NCBI GenBank assembly: GCA_018819305.1
Contig: JAHJQO010000040.1
Span: 44,320-108,319, forward strand
DNA from: Nanobdellota archaeon
GTDB taxonomy: Archaea; Nanobdellota; Nanobdellia; Woesearchaeales; SM23-78
DNA: 64,000 bases
Reading direction: 5' to 3'
In this document: positions 9,812 through 33,401 of the stretch, in pieces
Position numbering within the stretch: the first letter of the stretch is position 1
Layout of the letters: each line of letters starts with the position of its first letter
Program-made: the position numbers and the translations under genes
Notes under the pieces: generated by a model
Seen by the model: the letters and a program-made list of their open reading frames with translations, nothing else
Database searches by the model: none
What the model was told of the DNA's origin: nothing

Positions 9812-9926
9812 ACGGACGGTCATAGCTGCGTGGTTTACCTGTTCCCATTTCGAACACAGACGTCAAGAACGCATACGTTCCAGGGTGTACTGCACTTATG
9901 TGTGGGAAACCTGGGAAGCTGTCCAT
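9812..9926 (+). rRNA. rrf: 5S rRNA (stand-alone, no 16S/23S in window)
   Basis: GGACGGTCATAGC...CCCATTTCGAACACAGACGTCAAG...GTGTACTGCAC...GGGAAGCTGTCC. Terminal helix GGACGG/CTGTCC, with helix III-loop C and loop E-like segments. The ends are approximate to +/-3 nt. Confidence 0.85.
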
Positions 9927-9994
9927 TTAAATTTCTCGAAATTTAATAAATGAGTTATTCAATACAATTAAATTAATTGTTAGAATTATTCCAT

Positions 9995-11049: not shown

Positions 11050-11934
11050 TTAGGATTTCTTTCGAATCTTTGCAATAAAAAATCCCTGCGTCCCTGTTTT
11101 ATGAGGCCATAATCTCTTGCACTTTGCAATTTCAGGGTTTAATTCTTTGCCAAAAACATTTGTCAAACCAGAATCACCAATATCAACATCTATTTTTTCA
11201 AGAATAATATCATCTCGCTGCTCCAGCAGCCAATTAATCACGAGTTCGTTTTCTTCTGGTTCAAGAGAGCAGGTTGAATAAACTAGTATTCCACCCTGCG
11301 TTAATATTTCAACAGCGGTTTCTAATAACTGTTTCTGAGTTTTTGCCATTAATTCAAAATCTTCAAGTTTTCTTTCTTCAAACCAATTAGAATCAACTGC
11401 AAAGTTTCCTGAGCAAGGAGCATCAAGAAGAATTTTATCAAATTTGAGATTCAGGTCTTCTGCAAATCTTGCATCTTTCTTGTAAACAAGAACATTTTTT
11501 GCGCCGCATCGCTCAAGATTGTTTTTTAAGCTTGGAAGCCTTGGGTTGTTAGCATCAAGAGCAATAATTCTTGCCTTATTATTTGTTAACTGTGCTAATT
11601 GTGTTGTCTTGCTTCCCGGACAAGCACACATATCTAAAACTAAATCAGTATCCTTAAGTTCCAGTAATTCTGCAGGCAACTGGCTTGCTGCTTCTTGCAA
11701 ATAATAATACCCCTGAAGATATTCTGGTGTTGCACCCATTGGAACTTCAGAGTCATATGAATAGCCATTTTTAAGAAAAGAGATTTTTATGAGCTTTGCC
11801 CTGTCTTTTAACTTCTCGATCAGTTCTTTCTCAACTATCTTAAGGGTGTTAATTCTCAGAGTTTGCATTACTTTGACTTCTGCAGGTTCGAAGTCTTGTC
11901 CTAACTTTTTGTATCTTTCTATAAACTCATTCAT
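11050..11934 (-). CDS. NOL1/NOP2/Sun-family RNA cytosine-C5 methyltransferase
   Basis: 294 aa with DMCACPGSKTTQLA (SAM site), LLDAPCSG and YSTCSLEPEENE catalytic-Cys motifs. Confidence 0.85.
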   Translation of the reverse strand: MNEFIERYKKLGQDFEPAEVKVMQTLRINTLKIVEKELIEKLKDRAKLIKISFLKNGYSYDSEVPMGATPEYLQGYYYLQEAASQLPAELLELKDTDLVLDMCACPGSKTTQLAQLTNNKARIIALDANNPRLPSLKNNLERCGAKNVLVYKKDARFAEDLNLKFDKILLDAPCSGNFAVDSNWFEERKLEDFELMAKTQKQLLETAVEILTQGGILVYSTCSLEPEENELVINWLLEQRDDIILEKIDVDIGDSGLTNVFGKELNPEIAKCKRLWPHKTGTQGFFIAKIRKKS

Positions 11935-27929: not shown

Positions 27930-29264
27930 TTAGAAATTAACCTTGTCTCCATTCTTAAGAATCTTAATTTTTTTTGATTTGTATCCCATTTGCAATGCAA
28001 GCTCTTTCATTGCTTCAAGCCTTTTAACATCAGCATGAGTTGGGATTATATATTCTGGCTTAAGCAGTTTTATCAAATCTCTCTGGTCTTCTCTAAATGC
28101 ATGACCAGAAACATGCACACCAGTGAATAATCTTACTTTTTTTCTCTTAAGTTCATTATCCAACTTATCTCTGTTTCTGATGTTAGCCTCAACAGGAATT
28201 ATACTGCAGGAAAAAATTACATGGTCCTCTTCTTTAAAATCATATAAATGCTCACTCAGCATTCTTGGAAGAATAGCTCTTGGCTCACCCTGATGACCTG
28301 TGACAACAAACAAGTATTTTTCAGGCTTTTTGATTTTACCAAAGAACTTTTTGACTTTGTTGCCATACCTGACAAATTCTGCTTTTTTTGAAAAATCAAT
28401 AATACCAGCTCTTTCAGCCGCAGTAATATATTTAGAAAGAGACCTGCCGATGAATACAATTTGTCTCTTAAGTTTTATGCTAAGTTCAAAAATACTCTTA
28501 AGCCTTGCAATGTGGCTGGAAAAAGTTGTCACAATAACAGCTTTGCCTTCTGAATTCACACCTAAGAGAACATCTTTAAGCATTTCTTTTGCAATGCTCT
28601 CGCTTGGTGTCTTCATTGGCGTGCCTGCATAAAGAGAATCCAGAATTAAGACTTTGACATTATCTTCTCCAATCTTTTGCAGTCCTTTATAATTAGGTTT
28701 TTCACCCAGAGTTGGAGCATTGTCAAGCTTAAAATCATTAGCATAAACAACAGTTCCATAAGGAGTATGCACTGCAATAATTACTGTCTGCGGAATAGAA
28801 TGAGTCATATTAATAAATTCAATTGTTATTTTTTTTGAAATCTTAAATTTTGAATTCACAGGATGCATAACAATATTGTTTCTCAAATTTATTTCATCAT
28901 CTTTAAGAATTGCACTTAATACTTCTGCAGTGTATCTTGTGCAGTGAATATCTGCTTTGAATTTGTTGCTAAGAAACGGAACAGCGCCTAAATGGTCAAG
29001 ATGAGCATGAGTAATGCAAATTGCTTTAACCTTGGGCCAAAGGTCATGTATTTGATTAATATTGGGAACTGCCTGAGCCCGTATCATGGTTTTTGCAGTC
29101 ATGTCTTTTTCAGAGTGAAGCTCTTCAAGGTCATCAGTGTAAGCAATATAATTATCCATATGCAGGCCCATGTCTAGAATAACAGCTTCATCATCTACTT
29201 TTACAAGAGTGCAGTTTCTGCCAATTTCAGAATAACCACCAACAGGAATTATTTGTAAACCCAT
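27930..29264 (-). CDS. rnj: Archaeal RNase J (metallo-beta-lactamase / beta-CASP)
   Basis: 444 aa with IIPVGGYSEIGRNCTLV, ITHAHLDHLGAVP and HVSGHA motifs. Confidence 0.85.
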   Translation of the reverse strand: MGLQIIPVGGYSEIGRNCTLVKVDDEAVILDMGLHMDNYIAYTDDLEELHSEKDMTAKTMIRAQAVPNINQIHDLWPKVKAICITHAHLDHLGAVPFLSNKFKADIHCTRYTAEVLSAILKDDEINLRNNIVMHPVNSKFKISKKITIEFINMTHSIPQTVIIAVHTPYGTVVYANDFKLDNAPTLGEKPNYKGLQKIGEDNVKVLILDSLYAGTPMKTPSESIAKEMLKDVLLGVNSEGKAVIVTTFSSHIARLKSIFELSIKLKRQIVFIGRSLSKYITAAERAGIIDFSKKAEFVRYGNKVKKFFGKIKKPEKYLFVVTGHQGEPRAILPRMLSEHLYDFKEEDHVIFSCSIIPVEANIRNRDKLDNELKRKKVRLFTGVHVSGHAFREDQRDLIKLLKPEYIIPTHADVKRLEAMKELALQMGYKSKKIKILKNGDKVNF

Positions 29265-29321
29265 GAATAGAATTAACCAAGAATAGAGTATTTAAAGCTT
29301 TTGGGTTGAAAAGAACAAAAG

Positions 29322-29490
29322 TGCGGACGGCAGGGCTTTCGTGAGTTTTTGCTTTTCACAAGGGGACTCCGGTCGAAGACTAGGAGTCGCCTGCTTTTTA
29401 CGAGATTTTTTGCAAAAATCTCTTTCGAACCTGCGTAGACATTACTCCAAGACTAACGTCTTGTCCTGCCAAGGCCACTCCTTGTCTAAG
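29322..29490 (-). other. tRNA-like element lacking a 5' acceptor strand, with an 88-nt insertion in the T-loop
   Basis: The minus strand reads GGAGTGGCCTTGGC (D-loop-like), then GCAGG-TTCGAA, 88 nt, C-CCTGC (a T-arm closed across the insertion), then CGTCCGC-A. No GCGGACG partner was noticed anywhere in the window (by eye, not an exhaustive scan). Confidence 0.35.
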
Positions 29491-29502
29491 CCAACAGATG
29501 AC

Positions 29503-30264
29503 TTATACTCTTTTCTTCAAAATAGTTATTCTTTCTTCTATGGATGTATAAGGGGGTAAATATCCTATTTTTTTCCAAACATCATGTCTTGTCTTATGTC
29601 TTGGGTTATTTGTTCCAATGATTTTAAACCATTTTTCAATTTCTGCTTTCCTTCTTATATTCAAAGCATACGAGTCGTTTATGTTTCTACCAAACTTAAA
29701 TCCTTTTTTTCCTTTTTGTGTTATTTTCGATTTTATATCCAACTTATTCAATAAATATTTAATTTGTTCTACTAACTTTTTAGAACAAGATGTTATTCTC
29801 AACTCAGGATGATAATTATGATTCTTTTTCCATTCAGTTGACGTCTTGGCTCTTGACCTTTCACACCAAAAAGAACCATCAGTATCAAAAATACCTCTTA
29901 AAACTGCTTTAATAACATCTTTATTATTAGAATATAAAATATTTTTAGGTATTTCAGCAATTAATGATTTAGGACCAATTTGAAAACCAAGACTTATGGC
30001 TTTTTTAATTACTTCTTTTTTGTAAGTTACAATTCCATAAACTTTCCAATAAGGAAATTTTTTTGGTTTTACAGGAGCAAAATACTTTGAAAATAAAGAA
30101 GCTAGATGATTGTCATAATATTGCTTATCTTCAGTTGTGTTTCCAGTTATATAAAGAGCATCTTTATCACTTTCAATCCATCCGTCGCCTATAAAAGCAC
30201 CTAAAATTTCAGCGATTTTAGGATTATTTAATAAATCTTTATTTTTTATTTTTTGATTAAGCAT
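29503..30264 (-). CDS. Free-standing double-motif LAGLIDADG homing endonuclease
   Basis: 253 aa with ILGAFIGDGWI and VLRGIFDTDGSF motifs. Lies between a tRNA gene and a tRNA-like fragment. Confidence 0.85.
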   Translation of the reverse strand: MLNQKIKNKDLLNNPKIAEILGAFIGDGWIESDKDALYITGNTTEDKQYYDNHLASLFSKYFAPVKPKKFPYWKVYGIVTYKKEVIKKAISLGFQIGPKSLIAEIPKNILYSNNKDVIKAVLRGIFDTDGSFWCERSRAKTSTEWKKNHNYHPELRITSCSKKLVEQIKYLLNKLDIKSKITQKGKKGFKFGRNINDSYALNIRRKAEIEKWFKIIGTNNPRHKTRHDVWKKIGYLPPYTSIEERITILKKRV

Positions 30265-30312
30265 TTAAATCACCGAATTAATTGAGGTTGAAACTATGTA
30301 AAAGATTTTGTG

Positions 30313-30342
30313 TTTAAATAGGTCACACACATATGTCCAGTG
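30313..30342 (-). promoter_or_regulatory. Promoter of the LAGLIDADG gene: CACTGGACAT element plus TATA
   Basis: The minus strand reads CACTGGACAT-ATGTGTGTGACC-TATTTAAA, with the ATG about 50 nt downstream. The 10-mer is shared with the sites at 38398 and 47328. Confidence 0.45.
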
Positions 30343-30462
30343 CCAATTAAAAATAGAAAATCATAATTTGATAGTTGAAACATTGTTGGAAGTGATTTAA
30401 CGCAATATGGCATCGAAAAATAAACAAAGGATGCATATTAATCTCTAGAAATAATGAATAAA

Positions 30463-30647
30463 TGAGGGGAGAGGGATTTGAACCCTCGTAGGCACTAAGC
30501 CAATAGATGGCCCATAGAGCATATCATTGATCTCATTTAGAGACCTCATCACTCAATAACTTGAGTTTGGATTTTCTAGTACCAATATACCGGAAAACTA
30601 TCCCGTTTAGCCTCCAATAAAGGATTTGGCCACTCCGGCATCCCCTC
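30463..30647 (-). tRNA. tRNA gene with about 100 nt of intervening sequence (class II shape, tentatively Leu-CAA)
   Basis: 7-bp acceptor GAGGGGA/TCCCCTC, U8, D-loop GAGTGGCCAAA, perfect T-arm GAGGG-TTCAAAT-CCCTC and discriminator A. At 185 nt it must contain introns. A BHB-like 19-nt D-loop intron lies at 30607-30625. The only canonical-looking anticodon loop is CTCAAG (30560-30565). The remaining splice sites are unresolved. Confidence 0.7.
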
Positions 30648-30707
30648 AATTAAATCTATGGAAAAAGGTTTAGTTTATAAGTGTTTTTCTTCAAAAGGTG
30701 TTGAGAA

Positions 30708-31118
30708 TCAGAGTCCCTGCAGTCTTCTCTGTACTTCATCCAGTGCTCGGCTTACTTTGTCAATCTCAGCAACATGCTTATTAGCAGGTTGTTTATGTTC
30801 TGATTTTTTTTCTTTGACAGACATAGATATGTGTGTCTTTTTATCTGGGACCATGTGGGGGAACTTCTTTTTTAGGTCTGCTTTTGTATAAACAGGCATC
30901 AGATCTTCAATCTTTTTCACCAGAAGCTTTAGTTCTTTTATTTCATGAGTTATCCTGTGTATTAATTCATGTTTTGCTTCTCTAATTCTTCTGATTCTAT
31001 GGGTTTCTTTTAATATACTTAAAGTTAGTTTTGAAGCTTCCAGAATATTTCTTCTGAACCCATTAGGATTATTTATCTGCATAAAAAATTCTTGCTGTCC
31101 GATATTTTTATCAGTCAT
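30708..31118 (-). CDS. Coiled-coil protein, unknown function
   Basis: 136-aa heptad-rich ORF, third gene of a tightly spaced trio. Confidence 0.4.
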   Translation of the reverse strand: MTDKNIGQQEFFMQINNPNGFRRNILEASKLTLSILKETHRIRRIREAKHELIHRITHEIKELKLLVKKIEDLMPVYTKADLKKKFPHMVPDKKTHISMSVKEKKSEHKQPANKHVAEIDKVSRALDEVQRRLQGL

Positions 31119-32378: not shown

Positions 32379-33401
32379 ATGTTAACTCTTTTTATGAGGG
32401 AAGCTTTGTATTACAAGAAACTGAGCAATAAGGTTGTGAAGTGCGAACTCTGTCCTTGGATGTGTATAATCAAGCCTGATAAAATAGGAATGTGCAGAGT
32501 CAGAAAGAATATGGCTGGCAAACTCTATTCTTTAATTTATGCAAGGCCATGTGCGGTGCATGTCGATCCAATTGAGAAAAAACCTTTTTATCATTTTATG
32601 CCTGGTGCAAAAGCATTTAGCATTGCCACTATTGGATGTAATTTTTTCTGTGAATTTTGCCAGAACTGGCAAATTAGCAAAGCAGATGCAAATAATATAG
32701 ATAATCAATTTGAAGAATTAAAACCAGAGCAAGTAATTAAGGTTTGCAAAGAAAACAATTGCCAGATCATCAGCTATACCTATACTGAGCCTACTATTTT
32801 TTATGAATACATGCTTGATATTGCAAAACAAGCAAAAAAACAAGGCATAAAGAACACTATTGTAAGCAATGGATATATTAATGAAGCACCTCTTAGAGAG
32901 CTTTGCAAGGTATTGGATAGTGCAAATATTGATTTAAAGGCTTTTACAAATGATTTTTATCAAAAAGTTTGCAAAGGAAAGCTTGAACCTGTGCTCAAAA
33001 CCTTAAAAATTCTAAAGCAAGAAGGTGTTTGGCTTGAAATCACTAATCTTATTGTGCCTGGCCAAAATGATGATTTTGAAAAGATTGAAGAAATGTGCAA
33101 ATGGATTGCAAAAGAACTTGGAAAAGATGTTCCGATTCATTTTTCAAGGTTTCATCCTGACTATAAAATGACTGATGCTAAGCCAACATCTGTTGAAACC
33201 CTTGAAAAAGCCAAAGAAATTGCAGAAAAATATCTTGATTATGTTTATCTCGGAAATGTTGGCGGTGAAACCAATACTTTTTGCCCTAAATGCAGGGAAA
33301 CAGTTATAAAAAGAAGCGTATTTCATGCTTCTCAGAACAGAATAAAAAGAGGTAAGTGTCCTGATTGCAAACAAAATATTGCTGGAGTTTGGGATACATG
33401 A
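32379..33401 (+). CDS. AmmeMemoRadiSam-system radical SAM enzyme
   Basis: 340 aa. N-terminal Cys cluster (CELCPWMC...CRVR), GCNFFCEFCQNWQIS radical SAM motif and a C-terminal CPKC...CPDC. Confidence 0.8.
   Translation: MLTLFMREALYYKKLSNKVVKCELCPWMCIIKPDKIGMCRVRKNMAGKLYSLIYARPCAVHVDPIEKKPFYHFMPGAKAFSIATIGCNFFCEFCQNWQISKADANNIDNQFEELKPEQVIKVCKENNCQIISYTYTEPTIFYEYMLDIAKQAKKQGIKNTIVSNGYINEAPLRELCKVLDSANIDLKAFTNDFYQKVCKGKLEPVLKTLKILKQEGVWLEITNLIVPGQNDDFEKIEEMCKWIAKELGKDVPIHFSRFHPDYKMTDAKPTSVETLEKAKEIAEKYLDYVYLGNVGGETNTFCPKCRETVIKRSVFHASQNRIKRGKCPDCKQNIAGVWDT

Follow-up and report, generated by a model that had tools for sequence, protein, structure and literature searches.

Archaeal homing endonucleases of the LAGLIDADG type are known from bulge-helix-bulge (BHB) introns of rRNA genes and from inteins, and the open reading frames (ORFs) of the I-DmoI, I-Tsp061I and I-PorI kind sit inside spliced rRNA BHB introns. 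Here we describe a LAGLIDADG gene next to a tRNA-Leu(CAA) gene in a 64-kb window, meaning the whole stretch of DNA analysed, taken from contig JAHJQO010000040.1 of a Nanobdellota archaeon, to which all positions refer unless a relative's locus is named. The locus is likely to be the one site for tRNA-Leu(CAA) in a Woesearchaeota-like genome, and to have been taken over by a cassette with a free-standing LAGLIDADG homing-endonuclease gene. The fold, the two-motif monomer, the archaeal host and the BHB intron position in a stable-RNA gene are shared with I-DmoI, I-Tsp061I and I-PorI, but here the ORF stands free after a complete tRNA gene, with a promoter-like spacer and a displaced tRNA half. 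LAGLIDADG genes are also known in archaeal rRNA group I introns, rRNA genes being the only published location of group I introns in archaea (PMC6125680). A group I intron with a homing endonuclease was ruled out by the lack of any Intron_gpI match up to E 10 in 29200-30750. A literature search found no description of a LAGLIDADG family tied to an archaeal tRNA gene.

Endonucleases acting together with a neighbouring intron are known from cyanophages, where F-CphI and the psbA intron provide a case of collaborative, or trans, homing. Similarly, phage T4 has the free-standing endonuclease gene mobE with the neighbouring I-TevIII intron (PMC2790892). In both cases, as in the window, an endonuclease gene lies beside an intron-containing target, intron-free alleles exist and the intron would protect its carrier; in this comparison, cleavage by the window's enzyme is presumed from its sequence. 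The phage pairs differ in that group I introns and protein-coding genes are involved, whereas the window has an archaeal tRNA BHB intron and a duplicated 3' exon. SegB is a GIY-YIG free-standing homing endonuclease in the tRNA gene cluster of phage T4, and is similar in its linkage with tRNA genes but different in its GIY-YIG type, its phage genome and the absence of a duplicated tRNA part. Phage T4 SegB is mentioned in PMC13096335.

The arrangement also has counterparts among displaced gene ends. For the example of atp6 in the fungal mitochondria of Allomyces, which shares with the window a working gene with a foreign 3' part, an endonuclease ORF and an orphaned native 3' part, a free-standing endonuclease gene brings a replacement 3' end and leaves the old end behind; that gene is protein-coding and organellar, whereas the gene here encodes an archaeal tRNA and the displaced part still bears introns. 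Nanoarchaeum equitans and Caldivirga have split tRNA genes, which resemble the window in a stand-alone 3' half from nucleotide (nt) 38 and a DPANN-type genome, but here there is no partner in 64 kb, no complementary leader and no promoter belonging to the half, and a complete gene lies 1 kb upstream. In Caldiarchaeum subterraneum a mobile element disrupts a tRNA gene, and a tRNA-Thr fragment lies 1.8 kb from the full gene (PMC3293823). As in that and other integrase-type integrations, the window has a mobile insert between a tRNA fragment and a complete tRNA of the same isotype, and intron content varies among alleles. Those inserts encode a recombinase or integrase, whereas the junction here is a canonical splice site and integrase-type integration was rejected because, although a tRNA segment is duplicated, the LAGLIDADG gene is the sole ORF in the 1-kb insert.

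Organization of the locus

On the minus strand the order is a 185-nt tRNA-like gene (copy A), a 198-nt AT-rich spacer, a 253-amino-acid ORF and a GC-rich structured stretch (element 2, or copy B) that begins 3 bases past the ORF stop and ends in CCCTGCCGTCCGCA (29322), with a T-run and then the RNase J gene downstream. A preliminary description of this DNA had given the 185-nt tRNA at 30647-30463, the spacer, the LAGLIDADG ORF and the positions of two repeated blocks accurately; its start of element 2 at 29490 is corrected to 29499/29500. The features are as follows.

30674-30688, minus strand: TATA-like block AAAAACACTTATAAA upstream of the tRNA, a putative promoter kept from the native locus
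30463-30647, minus strand: tRNA-Leu(CAA) gene, copy A, 185 nt, with exons 30647-30626, 30606-30598, 30566-30560 and 30508-30463
30607-30625, minus strand: copy A intron 1, 19 nt, in the D-loop, ATCCTTTATTGGAGGCTAA; BHB central helix 4/4, inner helix 3 base pairs (bp)
30567-30597, minus strand: copy A intron 2, 31 nt, in the anticodon stem at 30/31; BHB central helix 4/4, inner helix 4 bp
30509-30559, minus strand: copy A intron 3, 51 nt, at the canonical position 37/38; central helix CUCA/UGGG 4/4, inner helix 2 bp
30265-30462, minus strand: spacer with conserved motifs TCAAATTATGATT (30371-30359), CACTGGACAT (30342-30333), TATA-like CCTATTTAAACA (30322-30311) and GGTGA (30274-30270) before the ATG
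29503-30264, minus strand: LAGLIDADG endonuclease ORF, 253 amino acids, intact, with the two motifs ILGAFIGDG and LRGIFDTDG
29500-29502, minus strand: junction GTC between the stop codon and nt 38, which together with TAA mimics the 3' end of a 37/38 intron
29322-29499, minus strand: element 2, copy B, tRNA-Leu(CAA) nt 38-73, with exons 29499-29486, 29441-29424 and 29335-29322
29442-29485, minus strand: copy B variable-loop BHB intron, 44 nt; central helix 4/4, inner helix 5 bp; holds the 9-mer GGAGTGGCC
29336-29423, minus strand: copy B T-loop (59/60) BHB intron, 88 nt; central helix UUCG/CGAA 4/4, outer helix formed by the 5-bp T stem
29309-29320, minus strand: T-rich tract TTTTGTTCTTTT, the putative native tRNA terminator, followed by the RNase J promoter and gene (29264-27930)

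ARAGORN called no tRNA anywhere in the raw 64-kb window, and Rfam gave only a 5S rRNA in the window and no tRNA at the locus at gathering or permissive thresholds. The recommended ARAGORN check is blank on the raw sequence, and it is only after intron removal that ARAGORN returns tRNA-Leu(CAA). Both RNA stretches fold much better than shuffled controls, with z = -4.8 and, for element 2, -3.3. A practical caution is that such genes go entirely unnoticed by standard tRNA finders, and the window may hide further intron-rich tRNAs that are invisible to them in this lineage. The 5S rRNA is located at 9812-9927 on the plus strand, and no other rRNA gene adjoins it.

For site comparison 101 loci were fetched, the loci of relatives being labelled L001 upward. 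A scan for BHB motifs alone yields many false positives, and intron boundaries were fixed independently by comparison with relatives. The BHB motif is a 4-bp central helix between two 3-nt bulges, and each of the five introns, three in copy A and two in copy B, has a full 4/4 central helix.

The displaced 3' half downstream of the ORF

The element behind the ORF had been described as a 5'-truncated tRNA, and it is the 3' half, nt 38-73, of a tRNA-Leu(CAA). The 15-mer shared by 30509-30495 and 29500-29486 reflects real homology, as no shuffled sequence reached the observed count; in both copies it consists of the last intron base and the tRNA from nt 38 to the variable loop, and in relatives the block directly follows the ORF stop codon. 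The ORF is in this way tied to the canonical intron position, with element 2 beginning exactly at nt 38. The second block, the 9-mer GGAGTGGCC, does occur exactly at 30636-30628 and 29481-29473 as had been noted, but its supposed relationship to the D-loop is a chance match. If one mismatch is permitted, 7 of 100 shuffled sequences give at least as many matches as observed, and the match is judged coincidental because the 9-mer lies inside the variable-loop intron, whose homologue in L093 and L100 reads GGCTTGGCC. The opposite order of rearranged blocks that had been reported is accordingly only apparent, the 15-mer being a colinear duplication and the 9-mer an intronic chance match. Further near-matches to the 15-mer and the T-loop motif that were read, at 33178-33192 and 11885-11892, fall within coding sequence.

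For both copy B introns there are counterparts in working genes. The variable-loop intron has homologues in the functional tRNAs of L093, L098 and L100, and an intron is found at the same T-loop position in the functional tRNA-Leu(CAA) of L021, L033, L014 and L019, that of L021 ending identically to copy B's (CGAAAG, then CCCTGCCGTCCGCA). A reading of element 2 with three inserts was discarded, as the first two are one 44-nt variable-loop intron according to the BHB scan and L030/L093, and a plus-strand tRNA reading was discarded as there is no matching 3' acceptor.

Over 76-77 nt, copy B shares 91% identity with the tRNA-Leu(CAA) that is functional in L093 (E 8e-24) and L100 (E 3e-24), and ARAGORN accepted the 5' half of L093 joined to spliced copy B as tRNA-Leu(CAA). 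The flank after the copy B terminator is common to the flank after the L100 tRNA, the start of RNase J showing 86% DNA identity over 107 nt. At the other end of the locus, the AAAAACACTTATAAA block is identical in 15 of 15 positions to the equivalent position upstream of the endonuclease-less tRNA-Leu in L098, and ACTTATAAAC is found in L096 and L097 too. Judged from the L093/L100 match, the shared L100 flank and the upstream TATA block identical to that of L098, copy B is the native tRNA-Leu(CAA) 3' half of the host lineage, still in its native place.

The post-ORF halves of relatives all start at one junction, TAA-N(C/T)C followed by ATCT, which corresponds to the last intron bases and nt 38. 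The sequence is TAA-G(T/C)C, then ATCT, in L001, L008, L020 and L022, and TAA-ACC, then ATCT, in L030. In these five loci the halves are of full length; they are truncated in L007 and L011/L013 and lacking in about 10 other loci. The stop codon and the following G (TAAG) occupy the place of the intron's 3' helix strand and pair with CUCA in 3 of 4 positions. In most genomes the acceptors of copies A and B are of differing type, which would fit displacement by a mobile cassette better than the local rearrangement of a single gene.

The exact start of copy B at nt 38 would also be expected if the ORF had ancestrally been borne by a giant 37/38 BHB intron of tRNA-Leu(CAA) with copy B as the true 3' exon, a later duplication of that exon upstream of the ORF (copy A) having produced the short-intron tRNA and made copy B redundant; both 3' splice sites might still be used in some genomes. 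TAAG stands where the copy A intron has its central-helix strand (UGGG or UGAG), the acceptor of copy B can pair with the upstream 5' acceptor in L001, L007, L011/L013 and L030, and the closest structural relatives of the enzyme are intron-encoded archaeal enzymes. Such an origin is nevertheless unlikely. None of the sampled loci has the ORF between 5' and 3' exons without a complete upstream tRNA, and the ORF lies 198-199 nt downstream of a complete tRNA and not between the splice sites of an intron in the functional gene. In addition, the two copies differ in sequence type in most genomes, the nearest hosts are entirely without the ORF, a T-rich tract follows copy A, and the giant intron would have just 3 of 4 pairs in its central helix and, in the window, acceptor pairs failing at 3 of 7 positions.

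Because of these 3 mispaired positions copy B cannot pair with the upstream 5' acceptor, and it is presumed no longer to work as half of a tRNA. Its only remaining roles are probably those of a 3' untranslated end for the endonuclease transcript and of a right-hand homology arm for further homing, and its intact state suggests a recent event and a young relic.

That element 2 is instead a functional split tRNA-Leu 3' half, which would share a transcript with the endonuclease, lose its two introns and be joined by trans-splicing to a 5' half (GCGGACG...) from elsewhere in the genome to give a mature RNA with the 3' end CCUGCCGUCCGCA(CCA), is quite improbable. Its BHB introns and stems are intact, its GC content is high and its predicted folding stable (z = -3.3), and spliced copy B (ATCTGTTGGCTTAGTGTCTACGCAGGTTCGAACCCTGCCGTCCGCA) is nearly identical to the post-ORF copy in L030 (44 of 46 positions, with identical T arm GCAGG/CCTGC and acceptor CGTCCGC), though the L030 endonuclease is just 53% identical. 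Against it, searching the 64 kb for the 5' half (GCGGACG, wobble GYGGRYG) gave matches in coding regions only and no such 5' acceptor with tRNA context, which leaves the split tRNA put forward in the preliminary description unsupported within the window. The permuted tRNA raised there as well fails on the lack of a 5' half after element 2, where the T-run, a promoter and the RNase J gene are found. With the ORF abutting nt 38, there is also no leader that could form a BHB with a partner half; moreover, tRNA-Leu(CAA) is already provided by copy A, the near hosts use one contiguous gene for this tRNA, and the post-ORF copy is truncated or lost in relatives.

The upstream tRNA-Leu(CAA) gene

The presumed intron-rich tRNA upstream was identified from relatives, ARAGORN and the BHB scan as tRNA-Leu(CAA) with three BHB introns, and copy A is taken to be the functional gene. 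Once spliced it was called by ARAGORN as tRNA-Leu(CAA) with a long variable arm and A73 (class II), as opposed to no call on the raw sequence; in this run the D-loop intron boundaries were 2 nt off and the product was 85 nt, against a mature length of 84 nt from the BHB scan and intron-lacking relatives (GGAGTGGCCAAACGGGATAG). The exon boundaries are set by relatives carrying one, two or three of the same inserts. The acceptor is GAGGGGA/TCCCCTC and the T arm GAGGG-TTCAAAT-CCCTC, and a T-rich tract follows the gene.

Intron 1 is missing from L005, L016 and L022 and found in L003 and L100, the region 30640-30601 being 92.5% identical to L100. The boundaries of intron 2 predicted from relatives match the BHB position. 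For intron 3 the BHB was worked out by hand, with the anticodon stem as outer helix. This intron holds a C/D-box-like, or kink-turn (K-turn)-like, motif GAG-UGAUGA-hairpin-AAUGAUA..CUC at about 30555-30522 on the minus strand, which is conserved in the homologous introns of L001-L030 and L100 as GAG-UGAUGA-hairpin-(A/G)AUGA..CUC. Rfam returned a weak sR5 match to it (E 0.4, well under the gathering score). A reading as a C/D-box methylation guide was rejected, as guide sequences have no space between the boxes, and the form of the motif suggests a K-turn that would bind L7Ae rather than a methylation guide.

The LAGLIDADG endonuclease and its spacer

The LAGLIDADG gene was correctly recognised as free-standing, with a spacer and a putative promoter of its own, and its product matches Pfam LAGLIDADG_3 at 2e-12 (47.6 bits, cut-off 22.5). 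Among 30 aligned homologues D129 (LRGIFDTDG) is invariant and D27 (ILGAFIGDG) is present in at least 90%, and by motif position these acidic residues would be equivalent to the catalytic residues of I-DmoI. A sequence search of the PDB with the endonuclease gave marginal matches only. The AlphaFold model has a predicted local distance difference test (pLDDT) score of 94, and Foldseek aligned it with I-Tsp061I at a template modelling (TM) score of 0.77 and with I-DmoI at about 0.70, the Foldseek probability being 1.0 for I-Tsp061I, I-DmoI, PI-SceI and the TliVMA intein endonuclease domain.

More than 160 homologous DPANN proteins, labelled Woesearchaeota, Nanoarchaeota or Pacearchaeota, show 40-79% identity, and a relative of the endonuclease is encoded in roughly 360 genomes of the GTDB. 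Truncated family members exist, as expected for a selfish gene degenerating over time. A metagenome scan with a single protein as query gave 2 loci only. On viral contigs, endonuclease relatives with extended matches reached at most 31% identity, and a viral carrier is unsupported. Homologues were also seen in L081, titled Patescibacteria group bacterium UBA2163, and in many loci titled 'uncultured Methanosarcinales', all of which are probably mislabelled or contaminated DPANN contigs.

The spacer motifs recur in the spacers of L001, L003, L005 and L006 and were not found in endonuclease-less loci. As TCAAATTATGATT and CACTGGACAT are conserved upstream of endonucleases with just 68-74% identity, they may be a promoter or regulatory site, and a promoter function of the spacer is likewise presumed from its motifs.

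Empty sites in close relatives and probable mobility of the cassette

The 74-amino-acid flanking protein has many relatives at 60-77% identity, as opposed to at most 49% in endonuclease-bearing loci. The four loci of the 60-77% set that were read (L096, L097, L098/L099 and L100) keep the synteny, with a protein of about 250 amino acids, the 74-amino-acid protein, one of about 135 amino acids and then the tRNA, and none of the four has a LAGLIDADG gene. A search with the 136-amino-acid neighbour gave 2 short contigs that end too soon past the tRNA to prove endonuclease absence. In L096-L098 and L100 the tRNA-Leu(CAA) is single and of the type of element 2, with acceptor GCGGG(C/T)G, anticodon stem ACAGA/UCUGU and T stem GCAGG. 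Its intron content varies: the gene is intronless in L097, has a D-loop intron only in L096, a variable-loop intron in L098 and also in L093, and D-loop, 37/38 and variable-loop introns in L100, where RNase J follows directly as in the window. The uninterrupted site AGACTCAARATCTRTTGG was found in endonuclease-less loci only among the 101 fetched, and not in the window.

The exons of copy A (GAGGGGA acceptor, AUAGA stem and GAGGG T stem) are non-native and resemble those of the distant carriers L022 and L008. The D-loop intron of copy A, unlike its exons, resembles that of L100.

The comparison with related genomes that had been called for shows that ORF-bearing loci share the tRNA-Leu flank, and that the four near relatives examined are without the ORF at the same locus. 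The carrier contigs have conserved synteny with the same tRNA upstream of the ORF, and tRNA-Leu(CAA) is upstream in all group-A loci (endonuclease at least 53% identical) that include upstream sequence. In more distant hosts the layout is a full tRNA, spacer, ORF and a 3' half in various states of decay. Identities to relatives are 53-79% for the endonuclease, 27-49% for the small neighbouring proteins and 42-62% for RNase J (partial local alignments). Between endonuclease identity and that of the 74-amino-acid protein the Spearman correlation is -0.19 over 55 locus pairs; the window and L007 are 79% identical in the endonuclease and 35% in the 74-amino-acid protein, and the window and L030 53% and 49%, L030 having the most similar flanks among the carriers and the least similar endonuclease in that group. 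On pairwise identities, the gene is both present and absent at one site and has a history decoupled from that of its host.

An endonuclease identity of 53-79% against 27-57% for neighbouring proteins, with the same neighbours kept in many genomes, is what one would also see if the LAGLIDADG protein were a domesticated, vertically inherited host factor, for example a regulator or maturase linked to tRNA-Leu, with element 2 an unrelated local duplication. This is highly improbable, given that the gene is missing at the same locus in 4 of 4 close host relatives examined, that endonuclease similarity does not follow that of the flanking gene, that truncated copies exist and that the duplicated tRNA part always begins at the same junction.

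Proposed homing at the anticodon-loop junction

If the locus is an occupied homing site, the enzyme would cut an endonuclease-free tRNA-Leu(CAA) at or beside 37/38, either at the exon-exon junction AGACTCAAG/ATCTGTTGG or at the junction of intron and 3' exon. The target is deduced from the 37/38 insertion point and from the restriction of AGACTCAARATCTRTTGG to endonuclease-less loci. Repair templated by a cassette-bearing copy would then import the ORF and its promoter-bearing spacer together with the 37/38 intron and a 3' exon that replaces the native one. That every carrier has the identical junction is suggestive of a single founding event, for which one-ended invasion, synthesis through the ORF and end-joining at the break is one possibility; in later spread the displaced half and the 5' region could act as homology arms. 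In the window the 5' exon appears to have been co-converted, because all exons of the working gene (acceptor, anticodon stem and T stem) are non-native. The outcome would be a working tRNA of foreign type, resistant to cutting because its introns break the putative site, and a native 3' half displaced downstream of the ORF.

Several observations weigh against this account. Copy B is remarkably intact, with both BHB motifs, all stems and its 44/46 identity to L030, and this could be due to selection on copy B just as well as to recency. The test of incongruence was made with one short flanking protein and with pairwise identities rather than trees. Nor does copy A's tRNA type follow endonuclease similarity: it resembles that of L022, where the endonuclease is only 60% identical, so that alleles are mosaic and it is a simplification to let the whole tRNA travel with the ORF. 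Since L100 has a 37/38 intron without the endonuclease, an intron-bearing allele of the L100 type could have been the recipient, or alternatively an intronless one of the L097 type. Finally, cleavage, homing and RNA processing are all deduced from sequence.

Implications for tRNA introns and half-tRNA genes

How tRNA introns and split tRNA genes arose in archaea has long been an unsolved question. Randau and Soll have reportedly proposed that the break-up of genes protects tRNA genes from mobile elements targeting them. A related model of tRNA-gene protection against mobile elements is found in PMC3293823. Together with its relatives, the locus offers a family of LAGLIDADG genes linked to a single tRNA gene across the DPANN archaea, a natural before-and-after view of tRNA breakage and intron gain in the empty, occupied and decayed alleles of one site, and a displaced half-tRNA with its introns retained.

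It is a tentative and rather doubtful possibility that homing of this endonuclease family is a live creator of canonical-position BHB introns and orphan half-tRNA genes in archaea. The K-turn-like 37/38 intron would travel with the cassette, and when recombination between the two 3' exons removed the ORF, the intron would stay behind, L100 looking like such a product. Displaced halves like element 2 would be raw material for split tRNA genes, and the extra introns of a carrier tRNA would be selected because they destroy the DNA target of the enzyme.

Other features of related loci

In the L100 gene (3244-3440) the exons and the variable-loop intron are native and the D-loop and 37/38 introns resemble those of copy A, which is the mix that recombination between a carrier's two 3' exons would leave. 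Its acceptor stem has a C6-A67 mismatch.

A mirrored layout occurs in L034, L035, L036, L039, L040, L047 and L049 (about 2220-2310), several from Pacearchaeota-labelled bins, where the endonuclease is about 40-45% identical and an intronless tRNA-Leu(CAA) lies immediately downstream; the TAG stop of the ORF forms tRNA nt 8-10, and ORF and tRNA overlap by 10 nt. Of 61 loci whose endonuclease is less than 50% identical, 18 have such a downstream tRNA-Leu by BLAST.

In L005 (1115-1305, opposite strand) a convergent intron-rich tRNA with a T-arm insert, unrelated to tRNA-Leu, lies past the endonuclease gene and is a further case of multiple non-canonical introns in the lineage. In L016 (2462-2570) a tRNA-Leu(CAG) with a D-loop intron is located about 200 nt past the endonuclease gene and is preceded by its own partial 5' copy.

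Partial copies of the first 11-13 nt of the tRNA (e.g. GCGGGTGTGCCGG), with a hairpin, lie just upstream of the real tRNA-Leu in L096 (4196-4250), L097 (4202-4250), L098 (3232-3330), L001 (2678-2698), L016 (about 2460-2520) and L033, some of these loci being endonuclease-less. In L001 the partial copy is of another tRNA type than the gene that follows.

After tRNA-Leu(CAA), one to three tandem units of about 45-55 nt are found in L094 (1212-1320), L096 (4386-4488), L098 (3466-3615) and L093 (1555-1612), each with a small hairpin and ending in the tRNA's own 3' end (GCCCGCA, ACCCGCA or GTCCGCA). L096 and L098 are endonuclease-less, and the contigs of L093 and L094 end soon after. The units may have been left by repeated insertions or represent a small mobile hairpin element, and the hairpin CAAGACGCATTAGCGTCTTG of one of them resembles that of the variable-loop intron.

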